Positions 15,778 through 52,710 of a DNA stretch of 64,000 nt are shown here, piece by piece. The translations under genes and the position numbers were made by a program. Within the stretch, counting starts at the first letter, position 1, and every line of letters starts with the position of its first letter. Below the pieces are notes generated by a model, which was not told where the DNA came from, ran no database searches, and worked only from the letters and a program-made list of their open reading frames with translations. This stretch comes from Sphyrna mokarran (lineage: Eukaryota), in the NCBI GenBank assembly GCA_024679065.1, contig JAGIQG010000019.1:30380001-30444000 (forward strand). Direction: 5' to 3'.

Positions 15778-16108
15778 ATAAAAAACAAAACAGCACAGGA
15801 AACAGGCCTTTTGGCCCAACGAGCCTGCGCCGCCACCCCAATGTTCTCACCTCTACCCATGATCCCTGTTTATGTTTATAGATCGATGGATTGAAACCAA
15901 ATTTGAGACAATTTAGAGAGAATTTGTTCTGCCAATTAGCCTAAGAGCACATTTTTGAGATGTGAGAGGAAACTGGAGCACCTGGAAAAAACCCATGCAA
16001 GCACAGGGAGAATGCGCAAACTCCCACAGACACAGGCCCAAATCCATGTATCTGCACAGCACAGCGATAGTCACTGAGCTGTTGTGTTGCCCATCAAATA
16101 GTCCAGGT
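15778..16108 (-). mobile_element. Older 3'-UTR-only copy of the V-domain CR1 family
   Basis: Aligns by eye to 19660-19990 (cagcacaggaaacaggcc..., cctaagagc, ctcccacagacacaggccca, gatagtcactgagctgt) with more mismatches. Confidence 0.8.
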
Positions 16109-17520
16109 ATCAGAGGATTGGACAGTAGCTAATATTGTTCCTCTGCTTAAGAAGGGCAGAAGAGACAACCTGGTAAATTATAGGCCTGTGAGCCTTATTT
16201 CAGTGGTAGGGAAATTATTGGACAAAATTCTTAGAGATAGGATGTACTCACATCTGGAACAGAATGGACTTATTAGCGAAGGGCAGCTTGGTTTTGTAAA
16301 GGGGAGATTGTGTCTCACAAACTTGATTGAGTTCTTTGAGAGGAAGTGACAAAAAAAATTGACCAGAACAAGGAAGTGGATATTGTATACATGGACTACA
16401 ATAAAGCCTTCAATAAGGTTCTTCATGGCAAGCTGAAACAGAAGGTGAAGTCATATGGCATCCAAGGTCAGTTGGTAAAATGAATACAAAACTGACTTGG
16501 ACATAGAAAGCAGAGACAAACAGTGGAAGGGTATTTTTTTAACTGGAGGTCTGTGACAAGCAGTGTTCAACAAGGATCAATGCTGGGGCCTCTATTGTTT
16601 GTAATACAAGTAAATGATTTGGAAGAAAATGTGGATGGTCTGATTAGTAAATTTGCAGATGATACAAAAATTGGGGGAGTGAAAAGGGTTGTCAGAGGAA
16701 ATAGAAGTATATAAATTGGCTGGAAATCTGGGCCAAAAAATAGGAGATGGATTTTAACCTGGGCAAATGTGAGGTGGTGCGATTTGGAAGGTTTACTGCA
16801 GAAGGAAAATATACTTCCTTCTGTATATTTTGTATATTAGATGGTAGAAATGGTAGAGCCCTTAGAAATATTAGCATACAGTGGGATCTAGGTCTGCATA
16901 CCTAGCAATGAAGGACCAATGAGCCTTAATGGGTCAGGGCATTGGAATTGGAGAATCATATTGCAGCTGTATAAGACTTTGGTTGGGCCATATTTGGAGT
17001 ATTGTGTACAATTCTGGTTGTCAACTACCAGAAGCATTTGATGCATTGGAAAGGATACAGAAGAGATTTATCAGGATGTTGCCTAGTTTGGAGGTTATGG
17101 ACAATGAAAAAAGGTTAAACAAACTTGGATTATTTTCATTGGAGTGTCGGAGGATGAGGGGAGACCTAATAGAGCTTTATAAGATTATGACAGGCTTAGA
17201 TAGAGTAAATAGAGTCTTCTTTTCAGAGTAAAAGGGTCAATTACTTGGGGGCATTGGTTGAAAGTAGGAGGGGAAAGCTTAAAAGAGAAATAAGGGACAA
17301 GTTTTTCCACAGAGGGAGGTGAATGCCAGGAAGGCACTGCCATAAGAGGTGGTGGAATGAGATTAGATAACAACAATCAAGAGGCATCTGGGTAGATATA
17401 TAAATAGGCAGGGATTTGGATCATGTAGAGACAAGAAAATATTAGATTAGAGAGGCATCTGTGTCAGCACAGAGTTGGTAGGCTGAAGGGTCTGTTCATT
17501 GCTGTACTGTTTTTTGTTCG
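16109..17520 (+). mobile_element. Degenerate CR1 RT-to-3'-end fragment
   Basis: Broken frames SVQQGSMLGPLLF, ISKFADDTKIGG, LERIQKRFIRML, RGDLIELYK; tail ggctgaagggtctgtt. Confidence 0.92.
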
Positions 17521-19526: not shown

Positions 19527-19654
19527 CTATGCATGAAACATAAAGATTACAAGGTTCATAGGAAGAAAGCACTACCCGTGCCTTTTATTAAAAACAACCG
19601 ATATCATCAGGCAGACCCACAGTACAGTATTATGGACAATATCAGAAACTCATT

Positions 19655-22600
19655 TTATTATTAAGCAACACAGCACGGGAAACAGGCCCTTCGGCCCAAC
19701 GAGCCCGCGCCACCGTAATACCAAATACATTATCCTATTTTAATATTCCTATATAATAATATATATATTAATCCTAATTTGGAAAATTTTCACCATAGGG
19801 ACAATTTGTTACCCAATCAGCCTAAGAGCGAATTTTTGGGTTGTGGGAGGAAACCGGAGTGCCCGGAGAAAACCCACGCAACCACGGGGAGAACGCGCAA
19901 ACTCCCGCAGACACCGGCCCAATTCCAAGTGTCTGCACAGCCACATCGATAGTCTCTGAGCTGTCATGGTGCCCTTCAGGTGGTCCACATAAAGCACTCA
20001 TATACGACATGAGGTACCAGGCAACCCATGAATCAACATCCAAGAGCTGTACCCGCACCACCTGCCGAATGCGTGCTCAAATTATGGACTGAATTACCTG
20101 TGGAAAAAAGCCGTAGTTAAACAGTCCTAATATATCCCTCTATCTGCATACCGCTCATGTGGCTGTCCAAGAGACCCTTAAACAGCCCCAGCGTGCCTGC
20201 TCCCACCACCTTACTCGGCAGTGCATTCCACACCCCCACTACCCTTTGTGTGAAAAACTGCCCTCTAATATTCGTCCTATACATAGCCCCCCTCACCCTA
20301 TGGCCATGACCTCTCGTCCTATCCATTTCTAAAGGTGGAAAAAGTTTACCTCCATTTACTCTATCTATACCCCTTATAATCTTATACACCTCTATGAGAT
20401 CCCCTCTAAGCCGACGTCTTTCAAGGGAAAACAACCCCAGTCTATCTAATCGTTCCTCATAGGACAGTCCTTCCATACCAGGCAGCATCCTGGTAAACCT
20501 CCTCTGCACTCTCTCCAAGGACTCCACATCCTTCCGATAGTACGGAGACCAGAACTGGGCGCAGTATTCCAAGTGAGGCCTAACCAAAGTTGTATACAAC
20601 TGCAACATCAAACTCCTACTCTTATATTCTATACCCTTTTCTATGAAAGCTAACATACTATACGCCTTCTTTGTCACCTTCTCCACCTGTGAGGACACCT
20701 TCAGAGACTTGTGAACCTGCACCCCCAAGTCTCTCTGCGTCTCTATGCTCCTTATAGTTTTACCTTTTATCCTATAATTCTCTTCTACATTTTTCCGGCC
20801 AAAATGCATCACCTCGCATTTTTCCGGATTAAATTCCATTTGCCATCTATCTGCCCAATCTACCAACCTGTCTATGTCCTGTTGTATTGCCTGACACTGC
20901 TCTTCTGTACCCGCCAATCCAAGCATCTTGGTGTCATCAGCAAATTTGCTGATCTCACCACCTACCCCTACTTCCAAGTCGTTTATGTAGACCACAAATA
21001 GAAGAGGACCTAGTACTGAGCCTTGTGGCACTCCACTAGTGACAGGCTTCCAGCTGGAAAAAGAGCCTTCCACTACTACCCTCTGTCTCCTCCTTCCGAG
21101 CCAGTTTTCGACCCATCTACATACCCGACCCTGTATCCCATGCGCCTTCACCTTCTCTATCAGTCTACCATGAGGAACCTTGTCAAACGCCTTACTGAAA
21201 TCCATGTAGACGACATCAACAGCCTGTCCTTCATCAACTGTTTTTGTCACTTCTTCAAAAAATTCCACCAGATTCGTAAGACAAGACTTCCCCTTGACGA
21301 AGCCATGCTGCGTATCCCTGATCAGATCGCAGCGCTCCAGATGCTCATACATCCTGTCCCTAAGGATCTTCTCCATTAGCTTACCTATAACTGAAGTCAA
21401 GCTCACCGGCCTATAGTTCCCTGGGTGATCCCTCTGACCTTTTTTAAACAACGGTACTACGTTTGCTATCCTCCAGTCCTCTGGGACCTCACCTGTGTCC
21501 AAGGAAGAGACAAAGATTTGCGTCAGAGGCCCAGCCAAGTCTTCCCTCAACTCCCTTAGCAGCCTGGGGTAAATGCCATCAGGCCCCGGAGCTTTATATG
21601 TCTTTAAGCTGCCTAACAGCCCCAACACCTCTTTCCTTGTAATCCTTATTTCCCTCAACCAATCCTCAACTTTGTCAACATCAGGCACAGACATCTGTCC
21701 AGTCTCCTGTGTGAATACCGACGCAAAGTATTCATTCAGGATCTCCCCCATTCCCTCAGGCTCTAAGCATAGATCCCCTCCACTGTCCCTAAGAGGTCCA
21801 ATCTTGCCTCTAACCATCCTTTTGCTCCTTACATAGGTGTAAAATGCCTTTGGATTTTCTTTAATCCTACCTGCCAGAGCCACCTCATGGCCCCTTTTTG
21901 CCTTTCTAATACCCCTTTTAAGATCCCGTCTACACTCTCTATAAGCTTCCAGCGCTATCTCAGTCCCTAGTTGCCTAGATCTAATGTAAGCCTCTCTCTT
22001 TTTCTTGATCAAGTCCTCAATCTCCCTGGTAAGCCAAGGTTCTCTAATCCTACCTTTCCCATCCTTCCTCCTTGCCGGCACATATCTTTCCTGCAGAGAG
22101 TTTAGTTTTCCCTTGAAAGACTCCCACATGTACCTCGTCGACCTGCCCTCAAAAAGCTTATCCCAATCCGTATCTTTAAGATCTTGCCTAATCTGGCCGT
22201 ATCTAGCCCTCCCCCAGTTAAATACCCTCCCTTTTGGGCCAGTCTCATCCTTTTCCATTAATATCCTAAAGCAGACAGAGTTGTGATCACTATTTGACAC
22301 CTGCTCTCCTACCTCGACGTCAACCACCTGGCCTGGCTCATTCCCCAGAACCAAATCCAGTATAGCCCCCTCTCTAGTCGGGCCATCCACATACTGCTCC
22401 AAGGACCCTTCCAAAACACACTGTACAAATTCCTCCCCATCCACTCCTACAGCCCTGGGCACACTCCAATCTACTCCAGGAAAATTGAAATCTCCCACCA
22501 CTACCACCCTATTTTTCCTACACTTATCTAAAATGTCCCTGCATATCCCTTCTTCCACAGCCTGCGGGCTGTTGGGCGGTCTGTAGTAAACACCCAACAG

Positions 22601-23115
22601 AGTAACCACTCCCTTCCTATTCCTCAACTCCACCCATAGAGACTCAATTCCTAAATCATCCATACCTCTCTCCCTCTGCACTGCTATGACGTTGTCCTTA
22701 ACTAATAAAGCCACTCCCCCGCCTCTCTTCACACCAACTCTGTCACACCTAAAACACTTATACCCTGGAATATTCAATTGCCAGTCTTGCCCCTCCTTCA
22801 ACCACGTCTCGGTCACCGCCACCACGTCTAAACTCCTCGTGAACATTATTGCCTTCAGTTCATCTGTTTTGCCAGTCACACTCCTCGCATTAAAACACAT
22901 GCACTGAAGACCCTCAGCTCTCAGAAATACCTTTCTACCTACTGGTGTTGCCCTATCATCCCTCTCTATCCCACTCCCAGTTCCTGCTGTCTCCCCACCC
23001 TCCCTCCCTATTAGTTTAAACATTTCTGAAACACTCCAGCTAACCTCCCAGCTAAAATATGTGTTCCCCTCCCAGTCAACTGCTCCCTATCCCTCGTGAA
23101 TAGGTGACCCTCCTT
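19655..23115 (-). mobile_element. Young CR1-clade LINE, 5'-truncated within ORF1; intact ORF2; ~460-nt 3' UTR containing a SINE V-domain
   Basis: ORF1 C-terminus (~23011-23115), ORF2 20117-23023, 3' terminal motif TTGGGCCGAAGGGCCTGTTTCCCGTGCTGT followed by a TAA-rich tail. Confidence 0.95.
20117..23023 (-). CDS. CR1 ORF2: APE endonuclease + reverse transcriptase, 968 aa, uninterrupted
   Basis: APE motifs NARS, VTETW, YRPP, GDFN, LDLVL, SDHN; RT motifs KAPGPDG, YRPVSL, DFSKAFD, GVPQGSVLGP, FADD; CR1 C-terminus VRPHLEYC...[12 protein letters not shown]...FFTQRVV..WN. Confidence 0.97.
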   Translation of the reverse strand: MFKLIGREGGETAGTGSGIERDDRATPVGRKVFLRAEGLQCMCFNARSVTGKTDELKAIMFTRSLDVVAVTETWLKEGQDWQLNIPGYKCFRCDRVGVKRGGGVALLVKDNVIAVQRERGMDDLGIESLWVELRNRKGVVTLLGVYYRPPNSPQAVEEGICRDILDKCRKNRVVVVGDFNFPGVDWSVPRAVGVDGEEFVQCVLEGSLEQYVDGPTREGAILDLVLGNEPGQVVDVEVGEQVSNSDHNSVCFRILMEKDETGPKGRVFNWGRARYGQIRQDLKDTDWDKLFEGRSTRYMWESFKGKLNSLQERYVPARRKDGKGRIREPWLTREIEDLIKKKREAYIRSRQLGTEIALEAYRECRRDLKRGIRKAKRGHEVALAGRIKENPKAFYTYVRSKRMVRGKIGPLRDSGGDLCLEPEGMGEILNEYFASVFTQETGQMSVPDVDKVEDWLREIRITRKEVLGLLGSLKTYKAPGPDGIYPRLLRELREDLAGPLTQIFVSSLDTGEVPEDWRIANVVPLFKKGQRDHPGNYRPVSLTSVIGKLMEKILRDRMYEHLERCDLIRDTQHGFVKGKSCLTNLVEFFEEVTKTVDEGQAVDVVYMDFSKAFDKVPHGRLIEKVKAHGIQGRVCRWVENWLGRRRQRVVVEGSFSSWKPVTSGVPQGSVLGPLLFVVYINDLEVGVGGEISKFADDTKMLGLAGTEEQCQAIQQDIDRLVDWADRWQMEFNPEKCEVMHFGRKNVEENYRIKGKTIRSIETQRDLGVQVHKSLKVSSQVEKVTKKAYSMLAFIEKGIEYKSRSLMLQLYTTLVRPHLEYCAQFWSPYYRKDVESLERVQRRFTRMLPGMEGLSYEERLDRLGLFSLERRRLRGDLIEVYKIIRGIDRVNGGKLFPPLEMDRTRGHGHRVRGAMYRTNIRGQFFTQRVVGVWNALPSKVVGAGTLGLFKGLLDSHMSGMQIEGYIRTV

Positions 23116-24178: not shown

Positions 24179-24386
24179 CTGATGTTTGTTGTGTCAAGAC
24201 TGACAGTCCTGGCCTCTCTTCCTCCAGGGCCATTGAAGTAGAGGGATTTCCCATCATTCAGTATCCCGCAGCCTATACCAGTCTGTCCTCCAGTAACCTT
24301 GAACCAGAAAGGACTGAGCTTATCCTCAAAACGATCAGTCATTTCACTGGGGTTTGATGTATTCGGAACACAGGTTCCCTCTTCAA
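24179..24386 (-). CDS. RELN: Reelin coding exon (~30), 208 nt
   Basis: cttgtag|TT GAA GAG ... ATC AG|gttaaa; [68 protein letters not shown](R). Confidence 0.95.
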
Positions 24387-25481
24387 CTACAAGAGAATGG
24401 AGCCATGCATTATCAGTAGAAGCAGCTTTTTGCATTAAACATTCGCCATTAAAATAGGGAATTGTTTCTATTAGTTAAACTGGAAACAGGAACACAAAGA
24501 GAAGCAAACAATGGTGAACAAGTCTGGAAAATGCACACCAATAAAGCAATTGTTAAACATAAATTACTTTTAAAATCTAAATTAGAGGTTACAATTTATA
24601 ACTCTTGGATATTGTTTCTCCTTTATTATTCCTGAGCACAATGAGAGAATGAGAAACACAATACAGAAATTAGTTTTAGTATATGATTTGCTGAACCAAG
24701 TAAGCATGCTCAATGCGTTGAAGCTAGTGTCCTGACTGTGGACGTAAGCTGTTTTAAGTAATTTAAGCCATGCACATTCTAGTAAAGATGGAACTAGCAG
24801 CCAAATATAAGTTGCAAAGCCACTTTTTATTTTAGAATAAAAGAGCTCCAGTGTTCATTTTAAAATAAAAATGTGCACAATTTAATAATGCAGCACCCAA
24901 CTTAACTAACAGTAATTCACGGTTTATTAATAGCCTTGATCTGTTAGCACCCTGGATGTAACCTTCCTGACATGGTTCACAACATGGGTGTCACACTCCA
25001 TGACACCCATCACAGTCAATCACTGTCACCATTTTCATTAGACTCGGTGTAGATTCACACAATAGCATGAGGAGAAACAAAATCTCCATTTTTCACGCTA
25101 ACCCAATCTTCGATCAACCAATTGCTTTGGACCTTGGATACTCAATTGTTTGCTGGACAGTTCACATCATGGGCCACTTGTTATACTGTACACTTTATTA
25201 AAACACGTGAAAAGTGGAACTCATCATGGGAGAAAGCCCAAAATGAATGATAATGTAGGGGGCACAGCATTTTACATTATACTAGATATTGACTGGAAAA
25301 GGAAAATAATTCAAGTGTAAATCTCTCTCCTAATGTGTTTTGCCCTTTCATCGAGTGCACTGAATTCCTACATCTCAGGCACCTTTTAAGTAAGTCTGAT
25401 TTATAGCTTCCAGCCATATTTCTATCTGAATCATATTCTGAAATTTAACATCAGGAACACTTTAGAAGTTTGTAATTTTTA

Positions 25482-25797
25482 GAATCATAGAATAGAATCA
25501 CAGAATCCTTACAGTGCAGAAGGAAGCCATTCAGCCCATTAAGCCTGCACTGACAACAATCCTATCCAGGCCCTATCCTCATAACCTAAGTATTTATCCT
25601 GCTAATTCCACCGACATTAAGGGACAATTTAGTATGGCCAATCAATCTAACTTGCACACCTTTGGAGTGTTGGAGGAAACCCACGCAGACATTAGCAGAA
25701 TGTGCAAACTCCACACACTAACCTGAAGTCAGCATTGAACACAGGTGCCTGGTGCTGTAGAGCAACAATGTTAACCACTGTACCACCATGCCACCCT
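25482..25797 (-). mobile_element. HE1-like V-SINE
   Basis: taaccactgtaccaccatgccaccc head, gcaaactccacac V-domain, agaatcatagaat tail. Confidence 0.88.
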
Positions 25798-32321: not shown

Positions 32322-32880
32322 AATCACAGAATCTTTACAGTTCAGAAGAAGGCCATTTGATCCATTGAGTCTGCACCAGTTCTCTGAGAGAGCATTCTTC
32401 CTAGTCCCACTCCCCTGCCTTAACCTTGCATGAGTTTGATCCAGGTTCCAATCACTCTCTGGGTGAAAATATTTTTCCTTAAATCACTTTTACTTCTTTT
32501 GCCAATTATTTTGAATCTGTGCCCTTTAGCTATTGATTCTTGAGTGGGGACAGTTTGTCACTTCTTATCCTGTCCATTCCTTTCAGGATCTTGAATACCT
32601 CTATCAAATTTCCTCTCAGCAAATGTTTCTCCAAGAAAAACAGTCCTAACCTCTCCAATTTAGCTTCATAACTACAGTTCTTTATCTCTGGAATCACTCA
32701 TGTGAATTCTCTCAAATGCTTTCACATGCTTCAAGTATGGTGCCCAGAATTGGATGAAATACTCCAGATAAGGCCTAGCTAGTTCTTATGCAAGTAAAAC
32801 ATGACATTCTCACTCTTATAGTTATGCCCCTATTAATAAAGCATAAGATACTATATGCTTCAACTGCCCTCGCAACTTGC
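32322..32880 (-). mobile_element. Second decayed CR1 3' fragment
   Basis: + strand shows ggtgcccagaattggatgaaatactccag (LEY..QFW), tacctctatcaaat, and a tail-like aatcacagaatc...gaaggccatt. Confidence 0.7.
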
Positions 32881-32933: not shown

Positions 32934-33799
32934 GTTTAAGGGGAATGTTTACAATTCAGCTTTAAGCTACAGGCAGTCAGTACGTCTGGTAGGAATGCAG
33001 TTCACATTTTTGGAGAGCAGAATAACTACGTAGTTCATACTTGCAAGTGCTTATTTTATGTAGAGGTAATGGATTTTTGTTTACTTAAATTCCACTCAAA
33101 CTTCTGATTAGAGTAATTGATGGGGTCATGTGATGATGTGATTAATTATGCAGAACTGAGTCTGTAGAAGTCAGAAAAAAGCTTTTGCAGAAAGTGGCTG
33201 AAATTACAAGGATGTTGCAGGCTCCTGAAATTCTCCATCACTGAAAGCTCCAAGACTATTAACAAATGTTAAAGCAACTATGCCTGGGTTTGCTAACTGG
33301 GTTTAGCTCTCTGCTAAATATAATAAATTGTATTTATTTGAAAGTGGTTTTGATCTATACATGAACGGAGCTTATTTGGAACTGGAACAGTCATAAGCTA
33401 GAAAGTTGTTTCCTTTCATTTTTAAATGTTGTTTAATTATTGATTGTTAAGCTGATTCACTTGTTAGAGTTTAAAATGTATTCTTAAATAAAATTTGTTT
33501 TACTACAAAAGATCCCTAATTAGTCAATGGAATCAATCCGGGAGCAAATTCATATTTAAGCCAAAAAGGAAAATTGTTGAGATCTAGTCTGGTTTCATAA
33601 TGTAATTTAGGATTCTAATCCAATACTCATACACCGAGCTCCATCTGGTCTTGGATGGCCTTTAGAGTTTAGAAGACTGATGCAAAATACCTATTCAATT
33701 CATCTGCCATCTCCTTAATTTACATCTCAAGTTTGTGGGATTATTAATGAAAATTAATAATTTTATTAATTTGACCAATGGTATATAATGTGACAAAAT

Positions 33800-34270
33800 G
33801 TGCAGAGGAGATTTACAAGGATGCTGCCTGGATTGGGAGGCAGGCCTTATGAAAATAGGTTGAGGGAGCTGGGACTCTTCTTACTGGAGAGACGTAGGTT
33901 GAGAGGTGACCTGATAGAGGCTTATAAAATGTTGAGAGGAATAGATAGGGTGGACTCTCAGAGACTATTTCCCTGAGCTGAAATGGTCACTACGAGAGGA
34001 CACAGATTTAAGGTGCAGGGAAGCAAATACAGAGGGGATGTTAGGGGTAAGTTTTTCACTCAGAGGTGGTGAGTGAATGGAATTGGCTGCCGTCAGAGGT
34101 GGTTGAAGCAAACTTGCTGGAGTCTTTTAAAAGACTTCTGGATGAGCATATGGAAACGAATGGGATAGGGGGTTATAGATAGGTTTGTGGATTGGTAAAT
34201 ATAGACGTGATTGGTGCAACTCGTGGGCCGAAGGGCCTGTTTGTGCTGTATTGTTCTATGTTCTATGTTC
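33800..34270 (+). mobile_element. CR1 (HER1-like) 3' fragment
   Basis: gtgcagaggagatttacaaggatgctgcct ... gggccgaagggcctgtttgtgctgtat(tgttcta)3. Confidence 0.93.
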
Positions 34271-34324
34271 TAAAATTGGATTGCATCAAAACCGAGGGTT
34301 GGAATATCCTGCACCATTTAGGAA

Positions 34325-34612
34325 GGGTGGCAAGGTGCCACAGTGGTTAGCGCTTTACAGTACCTGTGGTGCAAGTTCAATTCTGACTTTGGGTCACCGT
34401 CTGTGTGAAGTTTGCATGTTCTCCACATTTCTGCATGGGTTTCCTCCCACACGCCAAAGATTTGCAGGTTAGGTTGGTTGGCCATGTTAAATCACCCCTT
34501 AGATGGATTAACAGGGTAAATACTTAGGGTTCAGTGATAGGATGGATGGAATTGTGGTTGGTGATAACTCCATTGGCCAAATGGTCTTCTTCTGTGCCAT
34601 AAGGATTCTATG
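34325..34612 (+). mobile_element. HE1-like V-SINE
   Basis: gggtggcaaggtgccacagtggttagc head, ctgtgtgaagtttgcatgttctcc V-domain. Confidence 0.85.
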
Positions 34613-35759
34613 AAAGCAGGAAATAAACCAGAACACCTTTCTGTTCATGGACGGATGGTGTGAGAACAAATCTCTGGTATTTAAATTAACCCACTCTTTT
34701 ATCCATAACAGTAACAAACTGGAACAGGTAGGATTTCTACTTCCTTATTCAGTGTGGGAAGCTTTTAAAGAGTCCTTTAAAGTCATCTCAACCAATCTCT
34801 TTGACAAGGACAAAAGGGCCAGAGATTTAAAGAAAAGCAGGCAAAAATGAAGAGAAATGAACTGCTAATGGAGGCACAAGATAAAGGATCAATCCTCCAT
34901 CTACTCATCTCATGAGTGTAAGGGGGAACTGAATGAGTTGCTTCTGAGGGGACTTTTTCTTTAGATAAATATTGGCAGAGCCAATGTACAATTAGTTCTT
35001 TCACCTGAAAGGGCAGGTGAGAACTTGGTTTAATGTCTCATCTAAATTACAGCACAATCTGCAATGCAGCACTCCCCAGTGTGCACTGCAGCATACTATG
35101 TGGATTGATAATTAAAGTCAAGATCTTCTGATTGAACAGGCAAGAAGCTGAACCAAGGCTGACCTCAAGCTGACAGGTATGGCCCTGGACTCACACTTGG
35201 TCCTCACCTCAGATTCACATCTTTGCATTTGTCTCTCTGCTGACCTAGATCCTAAACAAAATATAGGCCTCTCCTCCTTTGTCGCTAGGAGCCATGCTGG
35301 GCATTAGGTCAAAGCCACGCCCAGCTCTTCTGCCACATCTGTATCTGCAAAAAGAGAAAAATAATGTCCCTTTGGCAGACACAGCTGGTGGAGGCTCCTC
35401 TTCCCAAAGCCAGCTGTGCTGTAGCTCACTATTGCTTGATTTACATGTTACGCTGGAATCTTCTTCAGAATTGCTCCAATTACAAATTTGGCACTACATG
35501 AAAGAAGGACTGCCAGATGTTCAACCAGTCCATCCATGTTAACTGATTGAGCGCAGCTCCGAGATATCCACCATCCATTTCTGCAAAGTCTGCCACAACT
35601 ATCTGTCATTGTCCATGGTGTGGGGAGGGTGCTATCGTTCCAGGATCTGGGTCGCAGAGAGGCACAAAGGTGTGAAACCTCAGGTGAGGATCAGTATTAT
35701 TATTTAAGGGCAGCAACTGTCAGGCTTGGTTCAGCCTCTTGGCTTTAAAATATCAACCC

Positions 35760-47769: not shown

Positions 47770-49330
47770 GTCTAAAGTATAGAAGGAAGGCATTCAGACC
47801 ATTGAGTCTCTACCAACTGTATCCCACCCAGGCCCTATTCCTGTAACCCTACACATTTATCCTGCTAATCCTCCTGACCCTAGGGTCAATTTAGCATTGC
47901 CAATCAACCTAACTTCAAATCTTTGGATTGTGGGAGGAAACCAAAGCATTTGGAGGAAACTCACACAGACAGGAGCAGTGCCAGGCAATACAACAGGACA
48001 TAGATAGGTTGGTAGACTGGGCAGATAGATGGCAAATGGAATTTAATCTGGATAAATGCGAGGTGATGCATTTTGGCCGGAAAAATGTAGAAGAGAGTTA
48101 TAAGATAAAAGGTAAAACTATTCGGAGTATAGAGACGCAGAGAGACTTGGGGGTGCAGGTTCACAAGTCTCTGAAGGTGTCTTCACAGGTGGAGAAGGTG
48201 ATAAAGAAAGCGTATATTATGTTAGCTTTCATAGAAAAGGGTATAGAATACAAGAGTAGGAGTTTGATGTTGCAATTGTATAGAATGTTGGTTAGGCCTC
48301 ACTTGGAATACTGCGTCCAGTTCTGGTCGCCGTACTATCGGAAGGATGTGGAGTCCTTGGAGAGAGTGCAGAGGAGGTTTACCAGGATGCTGCCTGGTAT
48401 GGAAGGACTGTCTTATGAGGAACGATTAAATAGACTGGGGTTGTTTTCCCTTGAAAGACGTCGGCTTAGAGGGGATCTCATAGAGGTGTATAAGATTATA
48501 AGGGGTATGGATAGAGTAAATGGAGGTAAACTTTTTCCACCTTTAGAAATGGATAGGACGAGGGGTCATGGCCATAGGGTGAGGGGGGCTATGTATAGGA
48601 CGAATATTAGAGGGCAGTTTTTCACACAAAGGGTAGTGGGGGTGTGGAATGCACTGCCGAGTAAGGTGGTGGGAGCAGGCATGCTAGGGCTGTTTAAGGG
48701 TCTCTTGGACAGCCACATGAGCGTTATGCAGATAGAGGGATATAGTAGGACTGTTTAACTATGGCTTTTTTTTCCCACAGGTAATTCGGTCCAACTTGAC
48801 CAACAAGGAGCATGCATTCGGCAGGTGGTGCGAGGACAGCTCTTGGATGTTGATTCATGGGTTGCCTGGTGCTTCATGTCGTAAATGAGTGCTTTATCTG
48901 GACCATCTGAAGGGCACCATGACAGCTCAGTGACTATCGCTGTAGCTGTGCAGACACTTGGAATTGGGCCGGTGTCTGCGGGAGTTTGCGCGTTCTCCCC
49001 GTGGTTGCGTGGGTTTTCTCCGGGCGCTCCGGTTTCCTCCCACATCCCAAAAATTCGCTCTTAGGCTGATTGGGAAACAAATTGTCCCTACATTGAGATT
49101 CTTCCATATTAGGAATAACCTAAAATTAGAATAGGATAATGGAATTGTTACTATATAGTTATGACGGCGGCGCGGGCTCATTGGGCCGAAGGGCCTGTTT
49201 CCCGTGCTGTGTTGCTCTAAACTCTAAAGACACAGGGAGAAAGTGGAAACTCCAAACAGACAGTGTCTTGAGGTTAGACTTGCAACCTCATGAGGCAACA
49301 GCGCTAAGTACTGTATACTATGAGCACCAG
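47770..49330 (-). mobile_element. HE1-like V-SINE split into 47770-47971 and 49228-49330 by a CR1 insertion
   Basis: Joined halves read ggaggaaactcacacagacacagggagaaagtggaaactccaaacagacag, the reverse complement of the V-domain. Confidence 0.85.
47972..49227 (+). mobile_element. 5'-truncated copy of the same CR1 family (ORF2 C-terminus + V-domain 3' UTR), nested in a HE1-like SINE
   Basis: EQCQAIQQDIDRLVDWADRW...QIEGY nearly identical to the 20117-23023 protein; tail (CTCTAAA)2; AGACA repeated at 47967-47971 and 49228-49232. Confidence 0.95.
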
Positions 49331-50519: not shown

Positions 50520-50803
50520 AAAGTGTAAGTTGCATAATTCACATTGCTACATTGCAGCCAACCACAGGCTGACAGTTACCATGCTAATTTATGTCAAAAC
50601 CCCTTTGTGCTATCTGGAACTCAGCTGTGTCTGGCAGAGCAAATGACTGAAGTGCTGGAAGGATTAATTTGCCAACCTGCTGAATAAGTTTATCTTCCAT
50701 TGTACTGTACTTCATGTTGTATCTATGCATTGGTTGTGAATTTCATTGATGGGAGTTCAAGAGGGGCGCTTGATTTAACCCAGCAATATCATCACTAATG
50801 AAA

Positions 50804-52710
50804 TCACTATAGATTAGCCAGGAAGGAGCTAAAAAGTGAATTGAGGAGAGCTAAGAGGGGACACGAGAAGATGTTGGCTGATAGGATTAAGGAGAATCCT
50901 AAAGCTTTCTTTCGATATGTTAAGAATAGAAGATTGGTTAGGGCAAGATTAGGGCCAGTCATAGACAGCAGTGGGAAGTTGTGCGTGGAGCCTGAAGAGA
51001 TTGGTGAGGCACTGAATAAATATTTCTCTTCGGTATTCACGCAGAGTGCTGGAAATGTAGCTATGGAGAACACTGAGGTACAGGGTTGCAAATTGGGAAG
51101 TATTGTAGTAGATAGGGAGGATGTGCTAGAAATTCTCGAGGGTTTGAAGTTGGATAAGTCCCCTGGGCCGGACGGGATTTACCCTAGGATTCTCTGGGAG
51201 GCAAGAGTGGAGATTGCAGAGCCTCTGGCTCTGATCTTCAGGTCCTCGTTGGTTACGGGTGTGGTTCCGGAGGACTGGAGGATAGCGAATGTGGTCCCAT
51301 TGTTTAAGAAGGGGAAGAGAGACCTTCCAGGGAATTATAGGCCAGTGAGTCTTACTTCTGTTGTGGGCAAGGTATTGGAGAGAATTATTAGGGATAGGAT
51401 TTATAGTTATTTAGAGAGAAATGAATTGATTGGGGATAGTCAGCATGGTTTCGTGAAGGGTAGGTCATGCCTTACTAACCTCATTGAGTTTTTTGAGAAA
51501 GTGACCAAAGAGGTGGATGGGGGTAAGGCGGTTGATGTAGTATATATGGACTTTAGTAAGGCGTTTGATAAGGTGGCCCATGGAAGACTTCTACAGAAAA
51601 TGCAGATGTGTGGAATAGAGGGTGATTTAGCTAATTGGATTAGGAATTGGCTGGCAGATAGAAGACAGAGGGTGGTGGTTGATGGGAGATATTCATCGTG
51701 GAGTTCGGTGACAAGTGGTGTGCCTCAGGGGTCTGTTTTGGGGCCCCTGCTGTTTGTAATTTTTATAAATGATCTGGATGAGGGTATTGAGGGATGGATC
51801 AGTAAATTTGCAGATAACACTAAAGTCGGTGGAGTGGTAGATAGTGAAGAGGGGTGTTATAGTTTACAGAGTGACTTGGACAAGTTGCAGAGCTGGGCCG
51901 AGAGGTGGCAAATGGAGTTTAATGTGGAAAAGTGTGAGGTAATGCACTTTGGCAGGAACAATAAATGTGTAGAGTATAGGGCTAATGGTAGGGCTCTTAA
52001 TAGTGTTGAGGAACAGAAGGATCTTGGTGTATGTGTCAATAGATCCCTGAAAGTAGGCAGTCAAGTGGATAAAGTTGTTAAGAAGGCATATGGAGTCTTA
52101 GCTTTTATTGGTAGGGGGATTGAATTTAGGAGCCGCAGCATCATGTTGCAACTGTACAAAACTCTAGTGCGGCCGCACTTGGAGTATTGTGTGCAGTTCT
52201 GGTCCCCACATTATAAGAAAGATGTGGAGGCATTGGAGAGGGTACAGAGGAGGTTTACCAGGATGTTGCCTGGTATGGAGGGCAGGTCTTATGAAGAGAG
52301 GTTGAGGGATTTGAGGTTGTTTTCGTTAGAAAGGAGGCGGCTAAGAGGGGATCTTATTGAAGCATATAAGATGATTAGAGGTTTAGATAGGGTGGACAGT
52401 GATAGCCTTTTTCCTAGGATGGAGAAAGCTAGCACGAGGGGACACAGCTTTAAATTAAGGGGTATGAGTTATAGGACGGATATCAGAGGTAGGTTCTTTA
52501 CTCAAAGAGTGATTAGGGAGTGGAATGCCCTGCCTGCAGCTGTTGTAGATGCGCCAAGTTTGGTGGCGTTTAAGAGGTTAGTTGATAAGTATATGGAAGA
52601 GAAGGGAATGGTTTAGTTTGGAGGGGCATTGCTTTTTATTTTGGTCGGCACAACATCGAAGGCCGAAGGGCCTGTTCTGTGCTGTAATGTTCTATGTTCT
52701 ATGTTCTATG
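50804..52710 (+). mobile_element. 5'-truncated young CR1 (HER1-like) LINE; 591-aa open RT frame lacking the endonuclease
   Basis: ORF 50841-52616 with RT motifs but FADN instead of FADD; ~95-nt 3' UTR ending GGCCGAAGGGCCTG...(GTTCTAT)3; candidate TSD ATGAAA at 50798-50803 and 52708-52713. Confidence 0.95.

Follow-up and report, generated by a model that had tools for sequence, protein, structure and literature searches.

SINE central domains such as the V-domain are conserved from cnidarians to vertebrates, and the reason for this conservation is debated. In SINEs, the V-domain is entangled with Pol III transcription and with mobilisation in trans. The shark and ray elements HE1 and HER1 were reportedly described by Ogiwara in 1999 and 2002. 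In the accessible parts of two publications (PMC3747384, PMC4824008), HE1 and HER1 appear as a V-SINE/CR1 pair that, like the chimera described below, combines a tRNA-type head, a V-domain and a CR1-type 3' stem-loop. The free V-SINEs of the window (the whole stretch of 64,000 nucleotides of DNA analysed here) and a CR1 ending near 32325 look, by their sequences, like such a SINE/LINE pair, for which HE1 and HER1 would be the appropriate names. In contrast to HE1/HER1, the chimera holds head and V-domain inside the LINE, behind an intact ORF2 and without a B box, and its terminus belongs to a CR1 type different from the one seen in the free SINEs of the window. HE1 is absent from the searched portion of the V-SINE supplement of PMC4824008. 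Three models for central-domain conservation are set out in the available section of PMC5499810: assistance of the SINE-LINE interaction, a recombination hot spot, and a benefit to the host.

The uptake of a V-SINE body by another transposable element, with loss of the promoter and spread by the carrier, is known from MER6/MER6A (PMC6887750, in part). MER6 is a non-autonomous DNA transposon that has lost the head, whereas the carrier of the chimera is a protein-coding LINE in which the head is kept. The V-domain in this carrier is therefore copied by way of RNA in each cycle and is open to selection at that stage. LINEs that likewise contain SINE-like or tRNA-like pieces are Ingi-3_AC and RTE-1_DAn; according to the portion of PMC5786205 at hand, recombination with Ceph-SINE has been suggested for the SINE-like piece of Ingi-3_AC. 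Unlike the chimera, both belong to other LINE clades and lack a V-domain, and the Ingi-3_AC piece is short and located in the 5' UTR. LINE-RNA fusions produced by template switch, ligation or nested insertion include U6/L1 and Alu/L1 (PMC13174262) and L1-BovB (PMC6036668), which, in the accessible text, carry the foreign RNA 5' of the LINE or represent a single nested insertion copy. In the chimera, by contrast, the SINE occupies the 3' end, and a replicating lineage arose from the fusion. SINEs are known to exchange modules via recombination or template switch (parts of PMC4824008 and PMC7245038), and the chimera exemplifies a module exchange from SINE to LINE that founded a lineage. In the available text of the Repbase-wide LINE-SINE comparison by Kojima (PMC5786205), the V-domain is mentioned once, as a listed domain, and the word 'shark' is absent. 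A CR1 with a V-domain UTR was not found in the literature covered, most of which was judged by title or the start of the abstract, with thin coverage of subscription journals and Repbase Reports; the chimeric family may already be catalogued without comment in Dfam or Repbase.

The best-preserved chimeric element, copy A, spans 19655-23115 on the minus strand. Its ORF2 (20117-23086, minus) is uninterrupted over 989 codons from stop to stop, with ATGs at 23023 and 22900, and Pfam recognises Exo_endo_phos at residues 65-268 and RVT_1 at 549-769, i.e., an APE endonuclease followed by a reverse transcriptase, with the motifs present. Vertebrate CR1s contain an esterase-type ORF1 upstream of ORF2. 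Three-frame translation of copy A reveals at this place the C-terminal ~30 codons and the stop of a probable esterase-type ORF1 (23011-23115, minus), with 15 of 27 residues identical to the end of the GDSL-esterase region of the ray protein P0086 (E=1e-5). Because just these last codons precede ORF2, copy A is considered to be 5'-truncated near 23115, an approximate position. Within the remnant (23060-23095, minus), three consecutive esterase-motif residues differ from P0086, including a histidine that is presumably the catalytic one, and the esterase of the source element may have been inactive. The assignment of copies A and B to CR1 is an assumption based on their architecture.

The best protein matches of the copy A ORF2 are unnamed or generic reverse transcriptase proteins, with stork, catshark and ray among the named hosts; the catshark and ray matches, together with the SINE type, point to a cartilaginous fish as host. 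The top match, P0002 (68%), bears the annotation Carnobacterium, and a search with the ORF2 alignment returned 27 loci (L001-L027) on GTDB contigs that encode CR1/L2-like ORF2s; both probably represent animal DNA in prokaryotic assemblies. The profiles of SINE, UTR and unique part match none of these 27 loci, of which the two closest (61-62%) end ahead of the ORF2 stop. In collections that contain no shark genomes, a 26-nt head motif had no match among the genome contigs, and the UTR had none among plasmids and phages, so that these negatives are uninformative. A reelin exon is located at about 24181-24387 (minus; E=1.9e-29 to reelin), and copy A sits in sense orientation within a reelin intron; the entire 64,000-nt window appears to lie within the reelin gene. 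A search for target site duplications around copy A yielded no convincing candidate.

An earlier note, made from the letters of the window, had described an ORF2 followed by a ~460-nt UTR with ~130-150 nt of unique sequence, a decayed SINE head without a clear B box and a V-domain, and this description is borne out. The 462 nt downstream of the ORF2 stop of copy A consist, all on the minus strand, of a unique part of 142 nt (19975-20116), a V-SINE tRNA-type head of 63 nt (19912-19974), a V-domain core of 70 nt (19842-19911), a post-V SINE body of 46 nt (19796-19841), a hypervariable AT-rich spacer of 81 nt with 19% GC (19715-19795), and a terminus of 52 nt. The region 19652-19714 holds the CR1-type terminal stem-loop and a short repeat tail, i.e., a LINE-type 3' tail. 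Among the window sequence and the 27 ORF2 loci, the unique part matches copy B alone. The V core is identical to the published scallop BivaV-SINE2_MiYe at 36 of 37 nt, compared by eye, and a published V primer matches copy A with 1 mismatch (6 matches in the window, 0 expected by chance). A profile built from 6 free SINEs of the window aligns colinearly through head, V and post-V of copies A, B and C (E 1e-24 to 1e-28), and in the post-V body 30-33 of 47 positions agree between copy B and each of four free SINEs.

The head is about 18 nt shorter than in the free SINEs, and these nucleotides are missing at the same place in A, B and C. Scored against the textbook box consensus, the best B box has 5 mismatches in each of the three copies versus 0-4 in the 6 free SINEs, and the degenerate A box has 2 mismatches in copies B and C. 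The 5' boundary of the SINE part coincides with the 5' end of the SINE itself, and the head is not free-standing, being fused to ORF2 in A and B. The head is a dead Pol III promoter lying in a LINE transcript, which fixes the direction of transfer as SINE to LINE, in line with the flow proposed in the earlier note. ARAGORN detected no tRNA gene, Rfam returned 4 matches with E 6-9, all far under the gathering score and none in the unique part, and no repeats above chance occur within the UTR apart from a hairpin.

Copy B (47973-49228, plus) is truncated within ORF2 and retains its last 261 codons in an open frame, followed by the UTR (48759-49214), with the V core at 48975-49044, and a short repeat tail. 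A minus-strand free V-SINE (47773-49326) is split by it into 47773-47971 and 49228-49326; the junctions show a duplication of ~5 nt, which was read by eye and was not picked by the automatic word search. A and B are 92.6% identical over 1251 columns, continuously across the ORF2 stop/UTR junction, and 86.5% identical over the 465 columns of the UTR, so that the same UTR is indeed present on copy B. The 1-kb flanks of A, B and C have only free-SINE copies in common, at unrelated positions. A segmental duplication, which by the earlier note would have spoken against the chimeric family, is in practice refuted by the unrelated flanks of A and B and by the SINE that copy B interrupts.

The 261 codons common to both copies contain 14.5 synonymous differences (172 sites) and 14.5 non-synonymous ones (608 sites), giving a dN/dS of 0.27 (p=8.6e-4); 2 of the 29 differences are of the CpG type. 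In simulations (n=2000, substitutions only), a 989-codon open frame survived in 28% of cases at 1% neutral divergence, in 9.6% at 2% and in 0.4% at 4.4%. This rare survival indicates that copy A is young and that the divergence between A and B accumulated largely in active sources. As this divergence was under purifying selection, the active source elements already had this tail. A and B are two independent insertions of one replicated LINE-SINE chimera. The strongest result of the analysis, absent from the earlier note, is that the A-B divergence accrued in working sources already bearing the SINE part. Of the proposal that the element is still able to copy itself, the part that it was replicated as a unit is supported by independent flanks and dN/dS 0.27; both A and B are 5'-truncated, and the element may still be active at present. 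Within the window, the ORF2-UTR junction is carried by two copies, A and B, and a full-length copy with a 5' UTR promoter and intact ORF1 was not found.

A third copy, C (15783-16109, minus), is CpG-decayed, lacks ORF2 and consists of 12-17 nt of the unique part, head, V, a different spacer and the terminus. It covers just UTR positions 126/130-454, and the claim that an older copy at about 15778-16108 has the same UTR does not stand in this form. Upstream of the head, 13 of 17 nt match copy B (P=3e-5), and 9 of 12 still match (P=7e-4) when the 5 nt common to the neighbouring element are subtracted. A, B and C cluster together to the exclusion of 5 free SINEs (support 100/100), and 9 of the 10 V differences between C and B are transitions. 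The most plausible reading of copy C is an older, heavily truncated representative of the chimera; it supports a greater age of the chimera and is weak evidence for a UTR travelling with ORF2. Its identity as a free SINE is disfavoured by the missing B box and by the extension upstream of the head. At 15783-17520, copy C lies head to head with an unrelated short-UTR CR1 on the plus strand, which starts from ORF2 residue ~533. Both are 5'-truncated at one point with ~5 nt in common, possibly reflecting two RNAs primed from both sides of one break, and no convincing target site duplication was found around this pair of copy C and CR1 17k.

The portion that can be shown by sequence comparison to be SINE-derived amounts to ~180 nt, comprising head, V and post-V. 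The view that the LINE UTR as a whole, with the 142-nt unique part, the spacer and the terminus, is a captured SINE is supported in part. When the spacers of A, B and C were compared with 5 free-SINE spacers, 96, 22 and 54 of 500 shuffles, respectively, scored as well, while each free-SINE spacer used as control beat 500 of 500 shuffles. In a tree of 16 termini based on 58 columns, A, B and C group with the short-UTR CR1s D, 34k and 17k (97/94) and stand apart from the 5 free SINEs as well as from the CR1 that ends near 32325 and has the same tail as these SINEs. The termini of A, B and C are 0.66-0.69 identical to those of D and 34k versus 0.46-0.61 to those of the free SINEs, and none of the 5 free-SINE tails in the window groups with A, B and C as a donor tail of this type would. 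ORF2 shows the same affinity, with identities to A of 94/135 and 76/117 for the short-UTR CR1s versus 53/114 for the free-SINE-tailed CR1. An ORF2 protein tree, from which one long-branch row (CR1_10k) was left out, gives 71/79 for the relatives of A, with the alternative not rejected (p-AU 0.087), and an ORF2 DNA tree does not resolve the relatives of A among the CR1s.

With a model built from 12 termini, a single terminus was detected in each UTR, and a search for a relic of a native terminus in the unique part or near the stop found none (best score 4.4 bits). The short UTRs of ~100 nt that had been reported for other CR1s of the window were seen again in those ending at ~52700 and ~34270, both without V. 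At 50802-52710 (plus), a second young-looking CR1 carries an open 604-codon ORF2 fragment, 65% identical to that of A, and a short UTR, making it a natural control lineage for copy A. No convincing target site duplication was found for CR1 D.

Between A and B, 12 of 141 positions differ in the unique part, 3 of 63 in the head, 1 of 70 in V, 2 of 46 in post-V, 24 of 75 in the spacer and 3 of 52 in the terminus, compared to a synonymous difference of 0.084 in ORF2; a second alignment gives 15/142 for the unique part and 16/64 for the spacer. The spacer differs from synonymous sites in both alignments (0.25-0.32 versus 0.084; p=5e-6 or 0.002). The statement that V is better kept than the spacer is correct as a count (1/70 versus 24/75), but it is misleading and overstates V, because the contrast mostly arises from the spacer as the outlier. 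This spacer (19715-19795, minus, in A; 49091-49165, plus, in B) changes 3-4x faster than synonymous sites, and 37 of 62 positions differ between B and C. Slippage or escape from small-RNA silencing are guesses at the cause of this turnover. A one-off swap of the spacer is disfavoured, since it changed ~4-5x faster than head and post-V in A-B and B-C alike.

The comparison of V with synonymous sites gives p=0.07 or 0.045, depending on rounding. At non-CpG sites, V has 0 changes in 54 and the unique part 12 in 130 between A and B (p=0.02), and head, V and post-V pooled have 6/179 versus 15/172 at synonymous sites (p=0.04). V does not differ significantly from head, post-V or terminus, and against head plus post-V in the B-C comparison p is 0.27. 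The terminus, which is expected to be constrained, has 0/37 (A-B) and 3/37 (B-C) non-CpG changes, versus 0/54 and 3/54 in V. V is marginally better kept than neutral yardsticks, at p values of 0.02-0.07 that come from one pair of copies, A and B, and are uncorrected for multiple testing. The function that had been proposed for the V-domain is thus retained as a hint, not as a finding.

A special fold of V was considered and set aside, since shuffled versions of the V core fold about equally well (z -1.3 and -0.8); the consensus fold of V over 6 copies has 13 pairs, 2 of them with two-sided changes. In the head hairpin, 80.7% of 83 cells are paired and 3 of 500 shuffles are equally high, but little weight is given to it because the structure was drawn from the same sequences. 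The unique part is predicted to fold into one long imperfect hairpin; the z-score is -3.6 for A, where a single shuffle out of 200 folded equally well, and -2.8 for B, where none out of 200 did. When 47 windows along A were folded, 3 attained a z of -3.6, including two within ORF2. With columns around indels omitted, B breaks 1 of A's 45 hairpin pairs versus 3.5 expected for 10 randomly placed substitutions (P=0.014; energy P=0.028), and the reverse test gives 3 broken versus 4.6 expected (P=0.22; energy P=0.042). None of the 42 pairs in the consensus fold of the unique part shows two-sided changes. The hairpin, a feature not contained in the earlier note, seems to be preserved according to these folding models.

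These data are probably best explained by a CR1 subfamily in whose source element a V-SINE once became joined to the 3' end and was replicated along with the LINE from then on. The SINE part would now be transcribed within the LINE mRNA, and ORF2p would still grip the terminal stem-loop and prime reverse transcription there, by analogy with the zebrafish L2-clade LINEs, for which the accessible part of PMC4176376 describes stringent ORF2 proteins that bind their own 3' stem-loop. With priming at this site, everything upstream is copied along, and a single fusion event that set the SINE part upstream of the recognised stem-loop would have sufficed for its copying in every cycle thereafter. Within this explanation, the somewhat favoured route is that a full-length V-SINE mobilised by the same CR1 clade replaced the LINE's own end. 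The reverse transcriptase could have reached the 5' end of the SINE RNA during copying and then jumped onto LINE mRNA, or a SINE could have inserted in sense into the UTR of the source element, with priming shifted to the SINE tail. A whole-SINE donor is favoured because the SINE part begins at its own 5' end and retains the order and spacing of a whole SINE. A recombination of head and body ahead of the native terminus is a less likely route, and read-through into a SINE that happened to lie downstream, with DNA flanking it, would be an unlikely one.

Three other accounts of the history are less probable. The strongest of them, although itself doubtful, is a mosaic UTR in which the LINE's native terminus was retained and SINE head and body alone were inserted or recombined in. 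It would explain why the termini of A, B and C group with those of D, 34k and 17k, the closest relatives of A by ORF2 identity, and why the chimera spacer cannot be aligned to free-SINE spacers. However, the terminus tree is based on 58 columns, a SINE partnered with the same CR1 clade would have the same terminus type, the spacer length of 79-85 nt lies inside the free-SINE range of 60-107 nt, and the order is colinear with a whole SINE. That A and B do not form a family, having arisen by segmental duplication or by separate chance SINE insertions behind a CR1, is very improbable given their identical junctions, common B-box deletion, unrelated flanks and dN/dS of 0.27, and the location of B inside another SINE, even though a chance tandem exists in the window, where a free V-SINE lies ~50 nt downstream of a same-strand short-UTR CR1 whose end is near 34275. 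It is equally hard to credit the reverse direction, in which the V-SINE body would descend from the LINE UTR, in the way that some SINE bodies derive from RTE UTRs. LINE-derived SINE bodies are known (PMC5786205, in part), and the V of copy A is very close to a mollusc V-domain, but the UTR contains a tRNA-type head with a degenerate A box and a deleted B box, V-SINEs range from cnidarians to vertebrates with different LINE partners, and related CR1s have no V.

The gain of a V-SINE by a CR1 source element, as the preferred history, is also compatible with a neutral passenger, for which the chimeric family is the same and the competing claim concerns function: the SINE body was never purged, and just the terminal stem-loop matters. 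This neutral reading is slightly favoured. It agrees with the borderline difference between V and synonymous sites (p=0.045-0.07), the lack of a significant difference from head, post-V and terminus, the unremarkable V fold (z -1.3), and the close relatives that replicate with ~100-nt V-less UTRs. MER6, moreover, had a V-SINE as DNA-transposon cargo without the need for an RNA stage (PMC6887750, in part). It is less easily reconciled with the absence of non-CpG changes in V versus 12/130 in the unique part (p=0.02), with the pooled 6/179 versus 15/172 (p=0.04), and with a SINE segment that remained without deletion while the neighbouring spacer turned over (37/62 different between B and C). 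A benefit of V and the hairpins to the RNA in cis, as opposed to riding along, is the less probable alternative, and selection keeping V and the adjacent hairpins inside a Pol II-transcribed, protein-coding LINE is likewise rather unlikely. If V were selected in the LINE, it would be a cis-acting RNA element that helps any retrotransposing RNA independently of Pol III; the LINE would have gained fitness by adopting its parasite's conserved domain and would be the first autonomous element for direct testing of V. If V is a passenger, the chimera stays a curiosity for curated libraries. In the chimera, V lies in cis in a LINE, together with a synonymous-site clock and close V-less relatives, which makes sequence and deletion tests direct. 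A self-copying element would here have taken up the body of a short parasite that normally depends on its kind, and kept copying.

Directly past the ORF2 stop, at 20094-20109 (minus) in A and 48769-48784 (plus) in B, a splice acceptor with pyrimidine tract is followed by a donor-like sequence; the pattern, which was chosen after being seen, has 2 matches in the window versus 0.08 expected. An acceptor immediately ahead of a donor is the arrangement of recursive splice sites. Elsewhere in the window, at 33794-34613 (plus), a short-UTR CR1 and a free V-SINE follow each other ~50 nt apart on the same strand, so that an arrangement suitable for read-through capture has come about by chance in this DNA. 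Two free V-SINEs (25498-25797, minus, and 34324-34613, plus) have a common 19-nt deletion within the V-domain, which suggests a subfamily that spread with half of V missing and thereby argues that V is not strictly needed.
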